This document shows, piece after piece, positions 4,088 through 10,288 of a stretch of DNA of 10,288 bases. Position 1 is the stretch's first letter. Each line of letters begins with the position of its first letter. Both the position numbers and the translations under genes were made by a program. The stretch lies in UHGV virus genome UHGV-0129999; one strand, written 5' to 3'. The stretch is from a virus. Below the pieces are notes generated by a model. It saw only the letters and a list, made by a program, of their open reading frames with translations, had not been told where the DNA came from and made no database searches.

Positions 4088-5451
4088 TAATAATCCTCTT
4101 GCCAGTCAGCACCAGCATAGTTATCAAACCGTGAGTATTGGCCGTTAAAAGCCAATCTCACCGTGCCAATTGGGCCATTTCGTTGCTTTCCGATAATTAC
4201 CTCGGCAATGCCCTTCATTTCGCTATCCGGGTGATAAACTTCGTCGCGATACAGAAACATGATCAGGTCTGCGTCCTGCTCAATTGCTCCTGATTCACGT
4301 AAATCTGAATTTACCGGTCGTTTGTCCGCACGCTGTTCAAGCGATCGATTAAGTTGTGACAATGCCACCACCGGTACTTGTAATTCCTTCGCCAACGCCT
4401 TCAGTGAGCGAGAAATCTCGGCAATTTCCAGCGTTCGGTTATCTTGCAGCTCGGGGACGCGCATAAGTTGCAGGTAGTCGATCATAATCATGCTCAAACC
4501 ACCATTTTCTTTATAAACACGACGAGCGCGGGAACGAAGCTCTGTAGGTGTCAGGGCGCTTGAGTCATCAATAAAAATATTCTGCTTGTCCAACAGAATC
4601 CCCATTGCGCCAGAAACCCGCGCCCAATCCTCGTCGTTAAGTTGCCCTGTTCGAATACGAGTCTGATCAACGCGTGCAAGAGAAGCCAGTGAGCGCATCA
4701 TCAGCTGGTGGCTCGGCATCTCAAGGCTAAAAACCAATACGGGCTTATCGTTACGGACTGCGGCATTTTCGACGAGATTCATCGCAAACGTAGTCTTCCC
4801 CATCGATGGGCGGGCGGCGACAATAATGAGATCGGACGCCTGAAGTCCTGCCGTCTTCTTATTGAGATCGGTAAATCCGGTATCAAGCCCCGTTACACCA
4901 TCATGCGGTCGCTGAAACAACTCTTCTATGCGAGATACCGTTGCATCGAGAATGCTGGCGATATCTTTTGGACCACTACCGCTCTTTTGTCGTTTTTCAG
5001 CTATTTCAAAAACGCGGCGCTCGGCCATATCCAGCAATTCATTGCTGCCCCTGCCATCCTGCGCATATCCAGCTTCGGCTATTTCATTTGCGACGGAAAT
5101 CATTTCACGAACAACCGCGCGTTCACGAACGATATCCGCATAAGCACAAATATTTGCCGCGCTGGGCGTGTTCTTTGACATCTCCGCAAGGTACGCAAAA
5201 CCACCGGCGCGTTCTAATTTACCGTTCTGTTCAAGTGCTTCAGCAAGTGTTATCAAATCAATCGGTTTGCCATGACTTAATAACCTCTCCATCTCACTGA
5301 AAATTTCACGATGAGCACTGGTATAAAAATCATCAGTAACTATACGATCTGCAACTTCATCCCAGCGGCAGTTATCAAGCATTAAGCCACCAAGTACAGC
5401 TTGTTCTGCACTAAGGGAATTTGGCATGGATTCAAGAGGGGATGCAGACAT
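4087..5451 (-). CDS. ban: Replicative DNA helicase, DnaB family (phage P1 Ban-like DnaB analogue)
   Basis: Protein is collinear with E. coli DnaB along its length (AEQAVLGGLMLDN, GFAYLAEMSKNTPSAANI, Walker A ARPSMGKTTFAMNLVENAA, IDYLQLMRVPELQDNRTLEIAEISRSLKALAKEL, SQLNRSLEQRADKRPVNSDLRESG) but diverges at the N-terminus and scattered positions, as expected for a phage paralogue. The ORF track starts at GTG 5457; ATG at 5451 is preferred because GGAG lies 5 nt upstream of it. Confidence 0.9.
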   Translation of the reverse strand: MSASPLESMPNSLSAEQAVLGGLMLDNCRWDEVADRIVTDDFYTSAHREIFSEMERLLSHGKPIDLITLAEALEQNGKLERAGGFAYLAEMSKNTPSAANICAYADIVRERAVVREMISVANEIAEAGYAQDGRGSNELLDMAERRVFEIAEKRQKSGSGPKDIASILDATVSRIEELFQRPHDGVTGLDTGFTDLNKKTAGLQASDLIIVAARPSMGKTTFAMNLVENAAVRNDKPVLVFSLEMPSHQLMMRSLASLARVDQTRIRTGQLNDEDWARVSGAMGILLDKQNIFIDDSSALTPTELRSRARRVYKENGGLSMIMIDYLQLMRVPELQDNRTLEIAEISRSLKALAKELQVPVVALSQLNRSLEQRADKRPVNSDLRESGAIEQDADLIMFLYRDEVYHPDSEMKGIAEVIIGKQRNGPIGTVRLAFNGQYSRFDNYAGADWQEDY

Positions 5452-5735
5452 TAGCACTCCACCCAGGCGTGCTGAATGTCAGATATAATCGGCATACTCA
5501 AATCACTCCTAACGATATGAGTCATCACCAGAAAATCAGGATTAATGCGCCGGACTCTTCCCGGCTGTCACACCGAATCGCCAGGATGGTGAGTCCCTGA
5601 ATCCGCTATCCTACCAACGGTGACTTGCACATTCCGGCTACCTGGTTTGTTGCCTGAGCTAGGGGAAAGGTTACCCCTTTAACGTCACCAGACCGCTAAC
5701 GACGCATGTGCCAGACGCCGTGTTACAACCAAATA

Positions 5736-5811
5736 TGGTGGCCCCTACCGGACTTGAACCGGTGACCGTGCGATTATGAGTCGCCAGCTCTAACCACTGA
5801 GCTAAAGGGCC
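5736..5811 (-). tRNA. tRNA-Ile (anticodon CAU, lysidine type; automated tools may label it tRNA-Met)
   Basis: Reverse complement GGCCCTTTAGCTCAGTGGTTAGAGCTGGCGACTCATAATCGCACGGTCACCGGTTCAAGTCCGGTAGGGGCCACCA (76 nt) folds as a canonical cloverleaf with encoded CCA; anticodon loop CUCAUAA; anticodon stem-loop nearly identical to E. coli ileX as recalled from memory. One G-A mismatch at the 27-43 pair. Confidence 0.85.
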
Positions 5812-5838
5812 GGATTACTGCCAATTTTGCTTACGCTT

Positions 5839-6666
5839 TTATTTCACCGGAACAAACGGAACAGCGGTATTACTGGTCATATACTGCGGTAATGTACCGT
5901 TCCATTTGTTGATCGCTTCCAACTCCATAACACCGGGGTTCTGGCGCAGAGCTTCACCACGTAAACGAATGGCATCAGCTTCGGCCTGGGCTTTTGTGCG
6001 AATAGCATCAGCCTGTCCGGCAGCTTCCGCGCGCAGCATGTTGGCCTCTGCTTCACGTTGTTTGACCTCTTGCTCGCGTTGCAGGGTTTTTTGGTTTGCC
6101 GTGACTTTGGCGTTAATACTGTCAATAACTGTTGGCGGGTATTCTGGCTTACCTACATAAGAGAGGCTCATCACCTGAATGCCGATTGGCGTCATTTCTT
6201 CCTGAATGTCTTTAAGGGCTGCATCAAGCAATTCGGATTTGCCACCGTCGATAAATTTGTCGGTTGTCATTTTGCTGGCTAACCGGTTCAGAGCATCTGC
6301 AACCTTCTGGCGTAGATCGGTATCAGTAATATCATCTACACCTTTGCGATAGGTCTGAAATACCGTTGTGACTTTTGCTGGATCAACCTTGTAGGCTACG
6401 CCGATGTGGTAACCAATGGTTGTTCCGTCGCTCATCTGGAAGCTGAACGGCTCATCGTATGTCTTCATTTGCTTAAAGGTCGGGAAGATATAAACTTCAG
6501 TATTCAAGCCTGTCCAGTAGCGACCAACGCCAACTACTTCACCGATACCTTTATCATCCCCCAGCTTATTTACTTTGATCCCTACGTTACCTGGCTCTAC
6601 CCGATCGCATCCGGTCAGACATAAAGAACCCAAAATAATCGCTGCACTAATCAACGTTTTTTTCAT
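5839..6666 (-). CDS. SPFH/Band-7 (stomatin/prohibitin-like) domain lipoprotein
   Basis: 275 aa; N-terminal signal peptide with lipobox (LCLTGC); central region typical of SPFH domains followed by a long Ala/Glu/Gln/Arg-rich coiled-coil tail (QREQEVKQREAEANMLRAEAAGQADAIRTKAQAEADAIRLRGEAL). AGGAAA Shine-Dalgarno upstream of ATG 6666. May correspond to P1 plp (from memory of the P1 map, not verified). Confidence 0.8.
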   Translation of the reverse strand: MKKTLISAAIILGSLCLTGCDRVEPGNVGIKVNKLGDDKGIGEVVGVGRYWTGLNTEVYIFPTFKQMKTYDEPFSFQMSDGTTIGYHIGVAYKVDPAKVTTVFQTYRKGVDDITDTDLRQKVADALNRLASKMTTDKFIDGGKSELLDAALKDIQEEMTPIGIQVMSLSYVGKPEYPPTVIDSINAKVTANQKTLQREQEVKQREAEANMLRAEAAGQADAIRTKAQAEADAIRLRGEALRQNPGVMELEAINKWNGTLPQYMTSNTAVPFVPVK

Positions 6667-6883
6667 TAATTAATTTCCTGGTTTTTTCACGAAAAAAGAC
6701 TACTGCGAAAGCTGGGTAAATGAGCGCGAGAAGGACTCCCAACAATACAAGTATTGTGCTGTTAGATGAGATCATATTTGGCAAAAGCCAAACATACAGA
6801 ACCAGTGACACAATCAAACAGAGGACGGCATAAATATATAACCGCACCCATAGCGTTCGACATTTGTTCGGATTGTTCTGCAT
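6647..6883 (-). CDS. Small two-helix integral membrane protein, overlapping the start of the SPFH lipoprotein gene
   Basis: 78-aa ORF with two hydrophobic stretches (LYIYAVLCLIVSLVLYVWLL and ILVLLGVLLALIYPAFAVVFF); GGAGTGAGAGG upstream of ATG 6883; 3' end overlaps the downstream lipoprotein gene by 20 nt, suggesting co-expression. May correspond to P1 upl. Confidence 0.55.
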   Translation of the reverse strand: MQNNPNKCRTLWVRLYIYAVLCLIVSLVLYVWLLPNMISSNSTILVLLGVLLALIYPAFAVVFFREKTRKLINEKNVD

Positions 6884-7064
6884 CCTCTCACTCCATTATT
6901 TAACGAATAAAAAAGCTGCGGTGCCGGGTGCCTCCCGGTGTCCTTTGGCTGGTTATCCACCGTGGACGGGGAAACAAGGAGAAATGAATGGACTGATATA
7001 ACCATTTCCCCGCGTGCGCTTAGCCGCATTCACCGCAACGGAAAGAGCATTCTTGGTGGACCTG

Positions 7065-7088
7065 TAGATTGGGATATGAACCCGTTAC
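7065..7088. repeat. 24-bp motif TAGATTGGGATATGAACCCGTTAC, copy 1 of 2 (plus a partial third copy at 7901..7917)
   Basis: Direct observation: 23/24 identity with 7344..7367; core GGG-ATATGA-CCC is an interrupted palindrome, and on the - strand reads GGGTTCATATCCC (tRNA T-arm-like). Confidence 0.5.
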
Positions 7089-7343
7089 AGGAGAATGCTC
7101 TTACCTGTTACGTGCTCCGTTTCGTGGAGCTAACGGCGGGTGATCAGACCGCACCAGACTGGACTTATTTCAGCGTTATGCTCATGCCAGAGAATCAAAC
7201 TGTGATGGTCGGTGCTGAACTCCGACACAGGGTTGTAGCAAGCCCCGCAAAGCGCGCACTACTGTAGTTGCGGCACATCAGCCTGTGCATTCACCACAAT
7301 GTTGAGAACACTGGTTGTCACGCTGCCTCGCGACATTTATTCA

Positions 7344-7367
7344 TAGATTGGGATATGACCCCGTTAC
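7344..7367. repeat. 24-bp motif TAGATTGGGATATGACCCCGTTAC, copy 2 of 2
   Basis: Direct observation; flanked by an inverted repeat pair (AATGTTGAGAACA at 7298..7310 and TGTTCTCAACGTT at about 7363..7375). Confidence 0.5.
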
Positions 7368-7533
7368 GCCAATGTTCTCAACGTTGTAGTGCCGGTTACG
7401 GTTCCGGCCAGGCCTCTTCCTCAACGGGGTGTTCTCCATACGGACTACCGTTTATTGGTCGTTCCTGCGGTTTATGTTGTGAAGCCAGATGCTTATCTTC
7501 TGGTTGCTTCTAAGAGCTGCACTTCATCACAAC

Positions 7534-7607
7534 GGTAAGGGTACTTCGTAGGGATTCGAACCCTCTGCCAAGCTCGGCGATCTCCGACGTCGCAAAATAC
7601 CCTTACC
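7534..7607 (-). ncRNA. Non-canonical tRNA-like element (possible pseudo-tRNA or structured RNA) directly 3' of tRNA-Thr
   Basis: The - strand reads GGTAAGGGTATTTTGCGACGTCGGAGATCGCCGAGCTTGGCAGAGGGTTCGAATCCCTACGAAGTACCCTTACC (74 nt): perfect 10-bp terminal helix (GGTAAGGGTA / TACCCTTACC), canonical T-loop GGGTTCGAATCCC, but no recognisable D-arm or anticodon arm and no encoded CCA. Lies 8 nt after tRNA-Thr. Confidence 0.3.
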
Positions 7608-7615
7608 TGTTGTGC

Positions 7616-7692
7616 TGGTGCCGATTAACGGACTCGAACCGCTGACATCCTGCTTACAAGGCAGGCGCTCTACCAACTGAGCTAAACCGGCA
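7616..7692 (-). tRNA. tRNA-Thr (anticodon UGU)
   Basis: Reverse complement TGCCGGTTTAGCTCAGTTGGTAGAGCGCCTGCCTTGTAAGCAGGATGTCAGCGGTTCGAGTCCGTTAATCGGCACCA (77 nt): 7-bp acceptor stem, D-arm GCTCAGTTGGTAGAGC, anticodon loop CUUGUAA, T-arm GGTTCGAGTCC, encoded CCA. Confidence 0.85.
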
Positions 7693-7693
7693 T

Positions 7694-7769
7694 TGGCGAT
7701 GGTGGATGGATTTGAACCATCGACCCGTTGATTAACAGTCAACCGCTCTAACCGCTGAGCTACACCATC
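7694..7769 (-). tRNA. tRNA-Asn (anticodon GUU)
   Basis: Reverse complement GATGGTGTAGCTCAGCGGTTAGAGCGGTTGACTGTTAATCAACGGGTCGATGGTTCAAATCCATCCACCATCGCCA (76 nt): canonical cloverleaf, anticodon loop CUGUUAA, encoded CCA; separated from tRNA-Thr by 1 nt. Confidence 0.85.
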
Positions 7770-8000
7770 ACTTGCCGGGTACGTCTCCGGCGAGGGCTTC
7801 CACCTCCGTATGCTTTTCGGCGCACCGCGCCCTGGCTGCAATTCGGTAACAGGGGATGCATAACCCTGGCTTCCAGCGTGATTAGCGCTTTCAGCATGAC
7901 GGGATATACCCGTAAATTCGTGGAACTGTACCCAAAGTGCTGTTAAGCACCGCTGTTACGCTGAAAAGAAGACGCAACAGGAAAGGACGCTGACCAACAG

Positions 8001-8537
8001 ATGGCCCCTTATGCAGATCTGTCAATGCTGCTTCAACTCGATATTGGTTGGGATGTTTACTGCCGTGCCAATGAGCGAGAAGTTTCAGAACTGCCGATCT
8101 CTATTGCCATTGGTGATGTGAATATTACTAAATCGCTTGAGGACGCTGTTAACGCGCTTAATACATCAAGTTTAGTCGCTGCTATGGGGGAGATTAACCA
8201 GACCCTTAACACTGGCTCAGGAAGCTCGTCAGGCTCTGGTTCAGGCGGCGGCACTGCCACTCCCCCACCAGCACTAACAGAAGAGCAAATTGAATCTCTG
8301 AAAGTAGCAACTGAACAGTTTGGGGTTGTTTTCAACCAGACAACAGCGCCCACAACTGCGTTACAACAGCAGTATGAACGAGCGAAGGAAAGCGCCAACG
8401 TAGCCATAACTGCTTATAACCATGCTATCGGTACCGCGCTTGCGGAAGCATCAGCAAATAAGGTCAGCACAGCCAGCGCAGTTGCCGTTTTGGTTCCTGA
8501 TTCTGTTCTTGATGAATTAAACAAAGCGGCACAGTAA
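8001..8537 (+). CDS. Hypothetical two-domain protein with a Gly/Ser-rich linker (GSGSSSGSGSGGG); function unknown
   Basis: 178-aa ORF on the strand of the downstream genes; no strong Shine-Dalgarno at the ATG at 8001, so the start is uncertain. No TM segment or recognised motif. Confidence 0.45.
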   Translation: MAPYADLSMLLQLDIGWDVYCRANEREVSELPISIAIGDVNITKSLEDAVNALNTSSLVAAMGEINQTLNTGSGSSSGSGSGGGTATPPPALTEEQIESLKVATEQFGVVFNQTTAPTTALQQQYERAKESANVAITAYNHAIGTALAEASANKVSTASAVAVLVPDSVLDELNKAAQ

Positions 8538-9176: not shown

Positions 9177-9362
9177 ATGTCTGATAAAGTAACAGTAAAG
9201 CAAACTATCAACAAAGCGACTTCAATCTACAAAATTGAGCAAATCACTGTTGGCAAGCCAGGATCTGAACAATACCGTCATGCTCTCGAACTTGCCGATC
9301 AACTTGGTTTAAAACATCCGGATTGTATCGAGCATGTATTTCCGACCTATGCTGATGAGTAA
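9177..9362 (+). CDS. Small hypothetical protein (61 aa); the reading frame continues open after its TAA stop up to 9569
   Basis: AAGGGA Shine-Dalgarno 5 nt before ATG 9177. After TAA at 9360-9362 the same frame stays open for 68 more codons to TAA at 9567-9569, just before a terminator. Confidence 0.4.
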   Translation: MSDKVTVKQTINKATSIYKIEQITVGKPGSEQYRHALELADQLGLKHPDCIEHVFPTYADE

Positions 9363-9583
9363 TGTACTCATGTTCTTACCGAAGAGGATTTTTTCAGCAC
9401 TGAAGAACGAGAAGGAGTTGATCGCTGCATTGGTGTGATTTGCTCTTCAGTGAGTTATGAGTTATTCCCTAATGTCCATGAAGATGGTGGTGTTGGATAC
9501 CAATTCCTGTATGAAGGCGATGAGCTTAAATGTTATGAACATGGTCTTCTTATCGAAAGCGTAGAATAATATGACTTCCTTCC

Positions 9584-9608
9584 AACCGGCTTTGTTGGCC
9601 GGTTTATT
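9584..9608 (+). terminator. Rho-independent terminator closing the + strand gene set upstream of the origin
   Basis: 7-bp stem AACCGGC (9584-9590) / GCCGGTT (9598-9604), 7-nt loop, then TTTATT. Confidence 0.5.
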
Positions 9609-9612
9609 CAAC

Positions 9613-9621
9613 TTATCCACA
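9613..9621 (+). promoter_or_regulatory. Consensus DnaA box (TTATCCACA) at the edge of the plasmid origin
   Basis: Exact 9/9 match to the DnaA box consensus, adjacent to the GATC cluster and iterons. Confidence 0.5.
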
Positions 9622-9626
9622 GCATA

Positions 9627-9720
9627 GATCCAATAAACAGATCCTAAAGAGAACCTAGGAAGATCCAAAGAAGATCCCGGATCGCTGTAAGCCGCGTCAT
9701 TACTGGCCTGAAATGGGATC
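9627..9720. promoter_or_regulatory. GATC-rich (Dam methylation/SeqA-type) origin region with AGATCC repeats
   Basis: Six GATC sites in 94 bp (9627, 9640, 9662, 9673, 9680, 9717) against about 0.4 expected by chance; four occur as AGATCC. Confidence 0.55.
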
Positions 9721-9724
9721 AACA

Positions 9725-9831
9725 TTGACTATACGCGATTTTATGTTGACTGTGCACGATTTATTGTTGACTGCACGCGATTTATTGTTGACTATACGCG
9801 ACAGAAACATTGACTGTAAGCGATTTTAGAG
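9725..9831 (+). repeat. Five tandem 21-22 bp direct repeats (iterons; putative RepA binding sites) upstream of the rep gene
   Basis: TTGACTATACGCGATTTTATG / TTGACTGTGCACGATTTATTG / TTGACTGCACGCGATTTATTG / TTGACTATACGCGACAGAAACA / TTGACTGTAAGCGATTTTAGAG, head-to-tail with no spacers, each starting with TTGACT; they end about 70 bp before the rep start codon. Confidence 0.7.
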
Positions 9832-9904
9832 TCTGAATATTCACAGCTGTTGATAACAGCCATCCAAATTGACGTCAGGCCGCGCCACACATGGAGAAAC
9901 CGTG

Positions 9905-10288
9905 ATGCCGGAAGAAAGTAAAGGCTTCCTTAGCGTTGAAGAAGTTGCAGGAAATACAGGAGAAATCCACAGCCTGAAGCCCAATAACAACAGCACTATA
10001 CAACCCATCGCTTTGTTGCGCTTAGGTGTGTTTGTGCCAACCTTAAAATCTACCAATGTGGCGCTACGTCGCGGATCGTCAGTTACAACAAACACAACGA
10101 ACGCAACTGAAGAACTATCAAGCCTCAAAATTGTTGAGCAGGAAGGCTATGAGGGAATTGAAATTCATGGTCCACGCCTGGATATGGATACTGATTTTAA
10201 GGTGTGGGTGGGCATAACCTCCGCGTTGTTTGACTACGCACCTGATGATGACGGCATAATCACCCTGCCATTCTCCGCGTAGATCGGA
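9905..10288 (+). CDS. repA: Plasmid replication initiator, RepA family (P1 RepA-like), 5' partial, continues beyond the window
   Basis: GGAGAA Shine-Dalgarno 8 nt before ATG 9905 (the ORF track starts at an upstream TTG). Segments NSTIQPIALLRLGVFVPT and [25 protein letters not shown] closely resemble the P1 RepA N-terminus as recalled from memory ([40 protein letters not shown]). Preceded by iterons, GATC cluster and DnaA box. Confidence 0.8.

Follow-up and report, generated by a model that had tools for sequence, protein, structure and literature searches.

We analyzed the 3′ end of the UHGV virus genome UHGV-0129999, a stretch of 10,288 nucleotides (nt) hereafter referred to as the window, in which positions 9613 to 10,288 had been annotated as a P1-type plasmid replicon. 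We are highly confident that this region contains a plasmid-maintenance origin, oriR, followed by the 5′ 43% of the initiator gene repA, that it is a replicon of the p0111 type, and that it most likely functions in the manner of the P1 replicon. p0111 is a common and already catalogued type, one of the two known alternative replicons in P1-like phage-plasmids, and the window therefore holds no new replicon type. The remaining part of the window is 97 to 98.6% identical to P1-like genomes. The element is thus a P1-like plasmid-prophage, as the initial annotation had proposed.

Nucleotide comparison was performed with an 889–base pair (bp) query running from position 9400 to the window end, of which positions 9400 to 10280 (881 bp) could be aligned. 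Three records labeled as phage P1 (MH422554, MH445380, and MH445381) and many plasmids were 99.9% identical to this region. pO111_2 of Escherichia coli O111 (NC_013370, which we take to be the RefSeq copy of AP010962) was 96.3% identical over the 881 bp, including 375 bp of repA, and RCS47, Ro157c2YLVW, JL22, and SJ46 were 95.7 to 96.4% identical, with the value of 95.7% observed for JL22. The BLAST typing that the initial annotation had put forward as a check thus returned a p0111 match. Another O111 record, NC_013366, was considered as the P1-like plasmid and rejected; it is the IncFII virulence plasmid pO111_3. Five copies of the repeat TTGACTNNNNRCGA are present upstream of repA in the window as well as in RCS47, MH422554, pEC974-2, and pO111_2, i.e., the iteron set is the same as in the p0111 references. 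When the p0111 rep gene of pO111_2 was used as a reference, nucleotide identity was high, with only ~43% of the gene located inside the window; for this reason, a coverage-based typing tool might miss p0111 if given this contig alone. The region from 9400 to the window end matched 651 PLSDB plasmids. Of 5426 complete E. coli genomes, 414 matched the iteron-plus-repA segment and 361 matched its counterpart from the P1 IncY replicon.

The assignment agrees with published work. In a published screen, the p0111 rep gene is referenced to AP010962.1 (PMC11165635), and the repA′ of JL22 has been called p0111 in a study that divided the replicons of P1-like phage-plasmids into IncY (31 of 55) and p0111 (24 of 55) (PMC9603915). 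P1 subgroup 1 was described as having two replicase families at one position, typed as IncY and p0111 (PMC7969092), and the SJ46 RepA was reported to be 42% identical to that of P1 (PMC5241659).

The outer edge of the origin is marked by a perfect DnaA box, TTATCCACA (9613 to 9621, plus strand), which is one of two exact matches to TTATNCACA in the whole window and aligns with the annotated DnaA site of P7 and P1. Immediately before it, at 9604 to 9612 of the same strand, sequence and alignment reveal a degenerate DnaA box–like 9-mer, TTATTCAAC, with two mismatches, occupying the place of the first of two tandem DnaA boxes found in P1 and P7. Between the DnaA box and the iterons, five GATC (Dam) sites are clustered at 9627 to 9683; four read AGATCC and one reads GGATCG. 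The sites start at 9627, 9640, 9662, 9673, and 9680, which amounts to 5 sites in 57 bp compared to 49 sites in the 10,288-bp window, or ~1 per 210 bp; at least five GATC sites per 60 bp were seen in 2 of 1000 dinucleotide-preserving shuffles. In the alignment, the cluster corresponds to the five Dam sites annotated in P1 and P7 except for one shifted site (a GATC of the window faces GGTC in P1, and a GATC of P1 faces GAAC in the window); it is also kept in IncFIB and IncFIB(K) replicons and in a Providencia relative. By analogy with P1, it is predicted to be the methylation-dependent origin-opening region. A sixth GATC (9717 to 9720) is located directly before the first iteron and is also found in RCS47 and in a 93-kb E. 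coli plasmid encoding a RepA that is 85% identical. The repA leader contains a palindromic pair of near-consensus DnaA boxes, ATATTCACA on the plus strand and TTATCAACA on the minus strand (9837 to 9856), which is a candidate right-hand DnaA site. As judged by eye, P7 carries ACTATCCACA in the corresponding interval, and the 93-kb plasmid carries a perfect inverted TTATCCACA in its leader interval.

Just upstream of repA, five direct repeats with the core TTGACTRYRNRCGA start at 9725, 9746, 9767, 9788, and 9810 of the plus strand, i.e., with a spacing of 21, 21, 21, and 22 bp that corresponds to the two-helical-turn phasing of P1-type origins. Iterons 1 to 4 read TTGACTATACGCGATTTTA (9725 to 9743), TTGACTGTGCACGATTTAT (9746 to 9764), TTGACTGCACGCGATTTAT (9767 to 9785), and TTGACTATACGCGACAGAA (9788 to 9806); iteron 5, TTGACTGTAAGCGATTTTA (9810 to 9828), follows iteron 4 at 22 bp, as in P7. 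All five match TTGACTNNNNRCGA exactly. With up to one mismatch allowed, TTGACTNNNNRCGA was found seven times in the window compared to 1.08 times expected, and seven matches were reached in none of 200 shuffles. Alignment with the annotated origins of P7 and P1 upheld the proposal of the initial annotation that a DnaA box, a Dam site–rich region, five iterons, and repA follow each other as in the P1 oriR. Its suggestion that the iterons are unlike those of P1/IncY was also correct: The 19-bp P1 iteron, GATGTGTGCTGGAGGGAAA, had no matches in the window at up to three mismatches. Among the loci that we fetched, TTGACTNNNNRCGA was present in 11 copies per complete p0111-type locus and was absent from P1 and P7, while the P1 iteron pattern was confined to P1 and P7. 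The two iteron types are therefore mutually exclusive across these loci. Iteron-related sequences were also seen outside of the arrays. In p0111-type elements, the repA coding sequence itself contains an iteron-like site, TTGACTATAAGCGA (positions 5110 to 5123 of locus L003, past the window end), and in the Providencia relative, an iteron copy is found in inverted orientation within repA. The P1/P7 iteron pattern occurs in P1 and P7 only in the incC and incA arrays.

Each iteron was noted in the initial annotation to begin with a −35–like TTGACT that would fit autoregulation of repA. As a sequence, the statement is true (5 of 6 positions), and a role for TTGACT as a −35 element in autoregulation is plausible by analogy with P1, where the annotated repA promoter is located inside the fourth and fifth iterons (iterons 11 and 10) and has weak hexamers. 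The best candidate for a repA promoter found by eye combines the TTGACT of iteron 3 (9767) with GACTAT (9790 to 9795) over a 17-nt spacer. TTGACG at 9869 was rejected as a −35 element: It has no usable −10 element and overlaps the Shine-Dalgarno region.

The repA reading frame occupies positions 9905 to 10279 of the plus strand, which correspond to codons 1 to 125 of 294 of a p0111-type initiator gene ended by the contig end. The annotated repA start of relatives maps to ATG 9905, which is preceded at 8 nt by a Shine-Dalgarno sequence, GGAGA (9892 to 9896, plus strand). Two other starts were rejected: GTG 9902 is not conserved in RCS47, and TTG 9869 was discarded in favor of ATG 9905, which matches annotated starts and has the Shine-Dalgarno sequence. 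The encoded fragment is identical to the MH422554 RepA at 124 of 125 positions and to the pO111_2 RepA at 122 of 125 positions, and matches PHROG 775 (E = 6e-49). The full-length RepA of a near-identical relative is 42% identical to the P7 RepA over 272 amino acids (E = 9e-71), as expected from the initial description of RepA as related to its P1 counterpart yet diverged. In Pfam, this full-length protein matched Rep3_C (27.3 bits at a cutoff of 21.1), and weak matches to Rep3 WH1/WH2 were obtained for both the p0111-type and P7 RepA. The 125–amino acid window fragment had no Pfam Rep3 match, NCBIfam had no family for either RepA, and a Protein Data Bank (PDB) sequence search with RepA returned only chance-level matches (E ≥ 0.39). 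The family of RepA is nevertheless settled by the homology to P1 RepA at E = 9e-71.

Identity to P7 is 97 to 100% up to ~9560, 71% (85 of 119 positions) over 9604 to 9724, and at noise level in the iterons. A terminator-like hairpin after upfA (9582 to 9598, plus strand), followed by a T-rich tail up to 9603, is the last P1-backbone sequence ahead of the replicon: 30 to 32 of 34 positions of this segment are identical to P1/P7, compared to the 71% identity just downstream. In the 93-kb plasmid with the 85% identical RepA, homology with the window starts precisely at the DnaA box (9613) and extends into the downstream iterons, where it stops; the adjacent flanks have no match to the P1-like sequences compared. 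Its iterons keep the TTGACT..GCGA core, and a phasing of 21, 21, 21, and 22 bp was counted from the sequence. The portable replicon module starts at the DnaA box, and the exchange boundary lies at ~9570 to 9612. At the other end, the closest p0111-type relative becomes homologous to P1 again (99.2% identity) immediately ahead of the par promoter; therefore, the swapped block extends from ~9604 to that point. Past repA, relatives that are 98 to 99.9% identical have a second iteron array consisting of ~2 to 3 forward and 4 reverse copies (L003 positions 5393 to 5650).

In relatives, the downstream iterons are separated from the par promoter by an extra open reading frame (ORF) for a 269–amino acid T5orf172-domain protein annotated as a GIY-YIG nuclease family member (positions 5683 to 6492 of locus L004). 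On P1 backbones, this ORF is found together with the p0111 module; in pO111_2 it is split, and in MH422554 it is not annotated. The 93-kb plasmid appears to lack it, as homology ends before the ORF. It is possible that the module from the DnaA box to the control array moves as a cassette, perhaps aided by the neighboring T5orf172/GIY-YIG–like gene. In the closest p0111-type relative, the par operon (L003 positions 6557 to 8372) is 99.2% identical to that of P1 and only ~65% identical to that of P7; across the par region, RCS47 is 98% identical to this relative.

Two alternative assignments of the replicon were weighed. The window could contain an ordinary classical P1/P7 (IncY) replicon, with the iteron simply misremembered in the initial annotation. 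Several near-identical records are labeled “Escherichia phage P1” or “Punavirus P1,” and the flanking backbone is 97 to 100% identical to P7. However, besides the missing P1 iteron and the mutual exclusivity of the iteron types, megablast alignments to P1 and P7 extend no further than 9699 and 9715, just ahead of the first iteron, and RepA is only 42% identical, which is far from the near-identity expected of IncY. These data refute the IncY assignment, which retains practically no probability. Capture of an IncFIB (RepFIB) replicon from an F-type or Klebsiella plasmid is also very improbable, if not to the same extreme. Such an origin might be suspected from a RepA slightly closer to IncFIB-type proteins (45 to 49% identity) than to the P1 RepA (42%), from the 69% identity of the left part of the origin to IncFIB(K), and from the label “RepFIB replication protein A” on three phage records. 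Yet, the repeats of IncFIB and IncFIB(K) differ from TTGACTATACGCGATTTAT of p0111 (TTACTGACTACAGCTTATAT in E. coli IncFIB and TGTCTATTGTATGCTACGAAA in IncFIB(K)), and RepA identities leave a gap between the groups: Among the 5000 best-scoring plasmid records, 392 encode a RepA with at least 99% identity and 4602 a RepA with less than 60% identity, with only six records in between. p0111 is, therefore, a sister lineage within the same family as IncFIB and not IncFIB itself.

Two further scenarios accept the p0111 identity of the iterons and repA and concern the history or the integrity of the locus; both are very unlikely, if marginally less so than IncFIB capture. In one, recombination inside oriR joined a P1 left half (the DnaA box and the GATC sites) to foreign iterons and repA. 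BLAST homology to P1/P7 indeed spans the DnaA box and the GATC cluster and ends right at the first iteron. The segment is, however, only 71% identical to P7, compared to 97 to 100% in the backbone tens of bases upstream; it is equally similar to Klebsiella IncFIB(K) (69% versus 65% to P7 in a five-way alignment); and it travels with repA, from the DnaA box on, on a plasmid whose adjacent flanks have no match to P1-like sequence. The hybrid origin was rejected on the basis of the 71% identity, the IncFIB(K) similarity, and the module start at 9613. The 71% identity instead reflects conservation of the host-factor part of the origin throughout the family, with no recombination scar inside it. 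In the other scenario, repA would be genuinely cut short at codon 126, and the replicon of this element would be defunct. An in-frame TAG is present at 10280 to 10282, and the contig contains two joins seen in no PLSDB plasmid as well as a nonsense codon in upfA. The TAG is, however, formed by T10280 and the terminal AGATCGGA (10281 to 10288), where the sequence ends. These last 8 bases, where relatives read TTGCCGAT, are the start of the Illumina adapter. All BLAST matches end at 10280, and repA matches relatives encoding full-length RepA without a mismatch up to 10277; over the 881 bases aligned, the 99.9% identical relatives differ from the window only at 10278, where the window has C and they have A. 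The relatives continue as ...CCGAGTTTGCCGAT... and read through to a 294–amino acid RepA. The window therefore ends inside repA, and the stop codon is an artifact. This calls for caution, as repA looks truncated only through adapter sequence at the contig end.

Some observations weigh against assigning a working p0111 replicon to the window. Only 125 of the 294 repA codons are present, and the downstream array lies beyond the contig end. The score of the full-length relative for Rep3_N, 22.0 bits, is just below the cutoff of 22.4 bits. A consensus promoter scan yielded no sigma-70 match on the plus strand; this negative result is weak evidence, since the annotated P1 hexamers (TTGCTA and TATAGG, taken from the near-identical P7 sequence) would fail the same rule. 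No experiment on the p0111 replicon type was found in the literature searched. Last, the contig itself has oddities in the form of the two unique internal joins and the upfA nonsense codon.

At the first join (~795 to 804, with a 10-bp overlap), ~1.44 kb of tail/baseplate genes are gone compared to MH422554 and pO111_2; the join fuses two ORFs into an ORF at 131 to 1399 and is spanned by none of 489 matching PLSDB plasmids. At the second (8009 to 8010), spanned by none of 575 matching plasmids, ~4.35 kb are gone compared to MH422554, including the dmt/dam methylase gene, rdgC/hrdC, two small ORFs, and the 5′ end of upfB. This join is either the mark of a deleted element or a mis-assembly. In upfA (9177 to 9569), an in-frame TAA at 9360 to 9362 takes the place of CAA (Q62) in relatives, indicating either a pseudogene or a sequencing error. 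Positions 1 to 29 of the window have no match to P1-like relatives that match from base 30 and may be a junction or an end artifact. Three minus-strand transfer RNA (tRNA) genes for Met, Thr, and Asn (5736 to 5811, 7616 to 7691, and 7694 to 7769) are present as in other P1-like elements; they were the only matches in an Rfam scan, which returned none in the replicon region. Minus-strand ORFs at 9462 to 9725 and 9841 to 10128 are annotated in no relative and were taken as chance ORFs.

Since no experiment on the p0111 type was found, RepA binding, autoregulation, and copy control rest on the analogy with P1, and we infer these steps, together with origin opening, from the established knowledge of the P1 replicon. 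RepA monomers would occupy the five phased iterons, and host DnaA would recognize the outer-edge box and probably also a weaker site within the leader of repA. The Dam-methylated stretch of GATC heptamers would then be opened, and would be sequestered when hemimethylated. Iteron-bound RepA is expected to repress its own promoter, while the second iteron array downstream of repA would limit the copy number through titration and handcuffing.

Given that the p0111 repeats have no relation to the P1 iteron and that the two RepA proteins are 42% identical, we infer that the RepA-iteron specificity of p0111 differs from that of P1/IncY. The distinct incompatibility type suggested by the initial annotation agrees with typing schemes and the literature, where IncY and p0111 are kept apart (PMC7969092, PMC9603915, and PMC11165635); replication compatibility of the two was inferred in these papers from typing and not from experiment. 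When both replicons were searched for in the complete E. coli genomes with a concatenated query, 773 genomes carried either of them. Since the separate counts sum to 775 (414 + 361), both replicons are present in ~2 of 5426 genomes compared to ~27 expected under independence, a rough estimate that includes marginal matches and is uncorrected for shared ancestry. No single record in this collection held both p0111 and IncY. The co-occurrence estimate suggests that barriers other than RepA/iteron incompatibility dominate. Candidate exclusion factors are a P1-type par system common to both (in the closest relative, the par operon is 99% identical to that of P1), C1 immunity, and superinfection exclusion. 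We therefore consider, tentatively and with the odds somewhat against it, that a difference in replicon may in practice be insufficient for two P1-like phage-plasmids to coexist in one cell. If true, repeated replicon swaps on P1 backbones would serve another purpose.

Compared to known p0111-type elements (pO111_2, RCS47, SJ46, JL22, and MH422554), the window has DNA identity of 95.7 to 99.9% over 9400 to 10280 and RepA identity of 122 to 124 of 125 residues, with the same five iterons, DnaA box, and GATC cluster at the same site between upfA and the par operon. There is no difference of substance: The window copy is cut at codon 125 by the contig end and has one mismatch, at 10278, beside the adapter remnant. 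The contig is thus placed in the p0111 branch of P1-like phage-plasmids, a branch found in ~8% of complete E. coli genomes and frequently carrying resistance or virulence cargo. The current understanding is unaltered, as the IncY/p0111 dichotomy and the inference of compatibility are already in print.

The initiator of P1 and P7 is homologous to that of p0111 (42% identity), and their replicon is located at the same genomic position as that of p0111 elements. The origins share the order of DnaA box, five Dam sites, five iterons, and repA, and the P7 phasing of 21, 21, 21, and 22 bp is that of the window. The iterons are unrelated (GATGTGTGCTGGAGGGAAA versus TTGACTATACGCGATTTAT). At the left edge, P1 and P7 have two tandem perfect DnaA boxes, whereas the window has one degenerate and one perfect box; the window also differs in the shifted GATC, the extra GATC abutting iteron 1, and the leader. 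The downstream two-orientation iteron array of p0111 relatives mirrors P1 incA. Unlike P1 and P7, these relatives have the extra T5orf172/GIY-YIG–like ORF in the interval from the control array to the par promoter.

RepFIB-type replicons (E. coli IncFIB, Klebsiella IncFIB(K), and SSU5-like phage-plasmids) encode a RepA of the same family with 44 to 49% identity and share the origin plan of a DnaA box, a GATAGATCCAATAA-type GATC cluster, phased repeats, and repA; the phasing of IncFIB(K) is also 21, 21, 21, and 22 bp. They differ in their iterons, in a RepA that is less than 50% identical, and in being located on non-P1 backbones. The Providencia relative has a RepA with 53.5% identity, a related iteron, TGTTGATGCTAGACGATTT, and 21-bp phasing. 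P1/IncY, p0111, IncFIB types, and SSU5-like elements thus appear to form one family in which the host-factor half of the origin is conserved while RepA and the iterons diverge together. They provide a clean natural example of a replicon where the DnaA box, the Dam sites, and the phasing stay constant and the initiator and its binding repeats change together.

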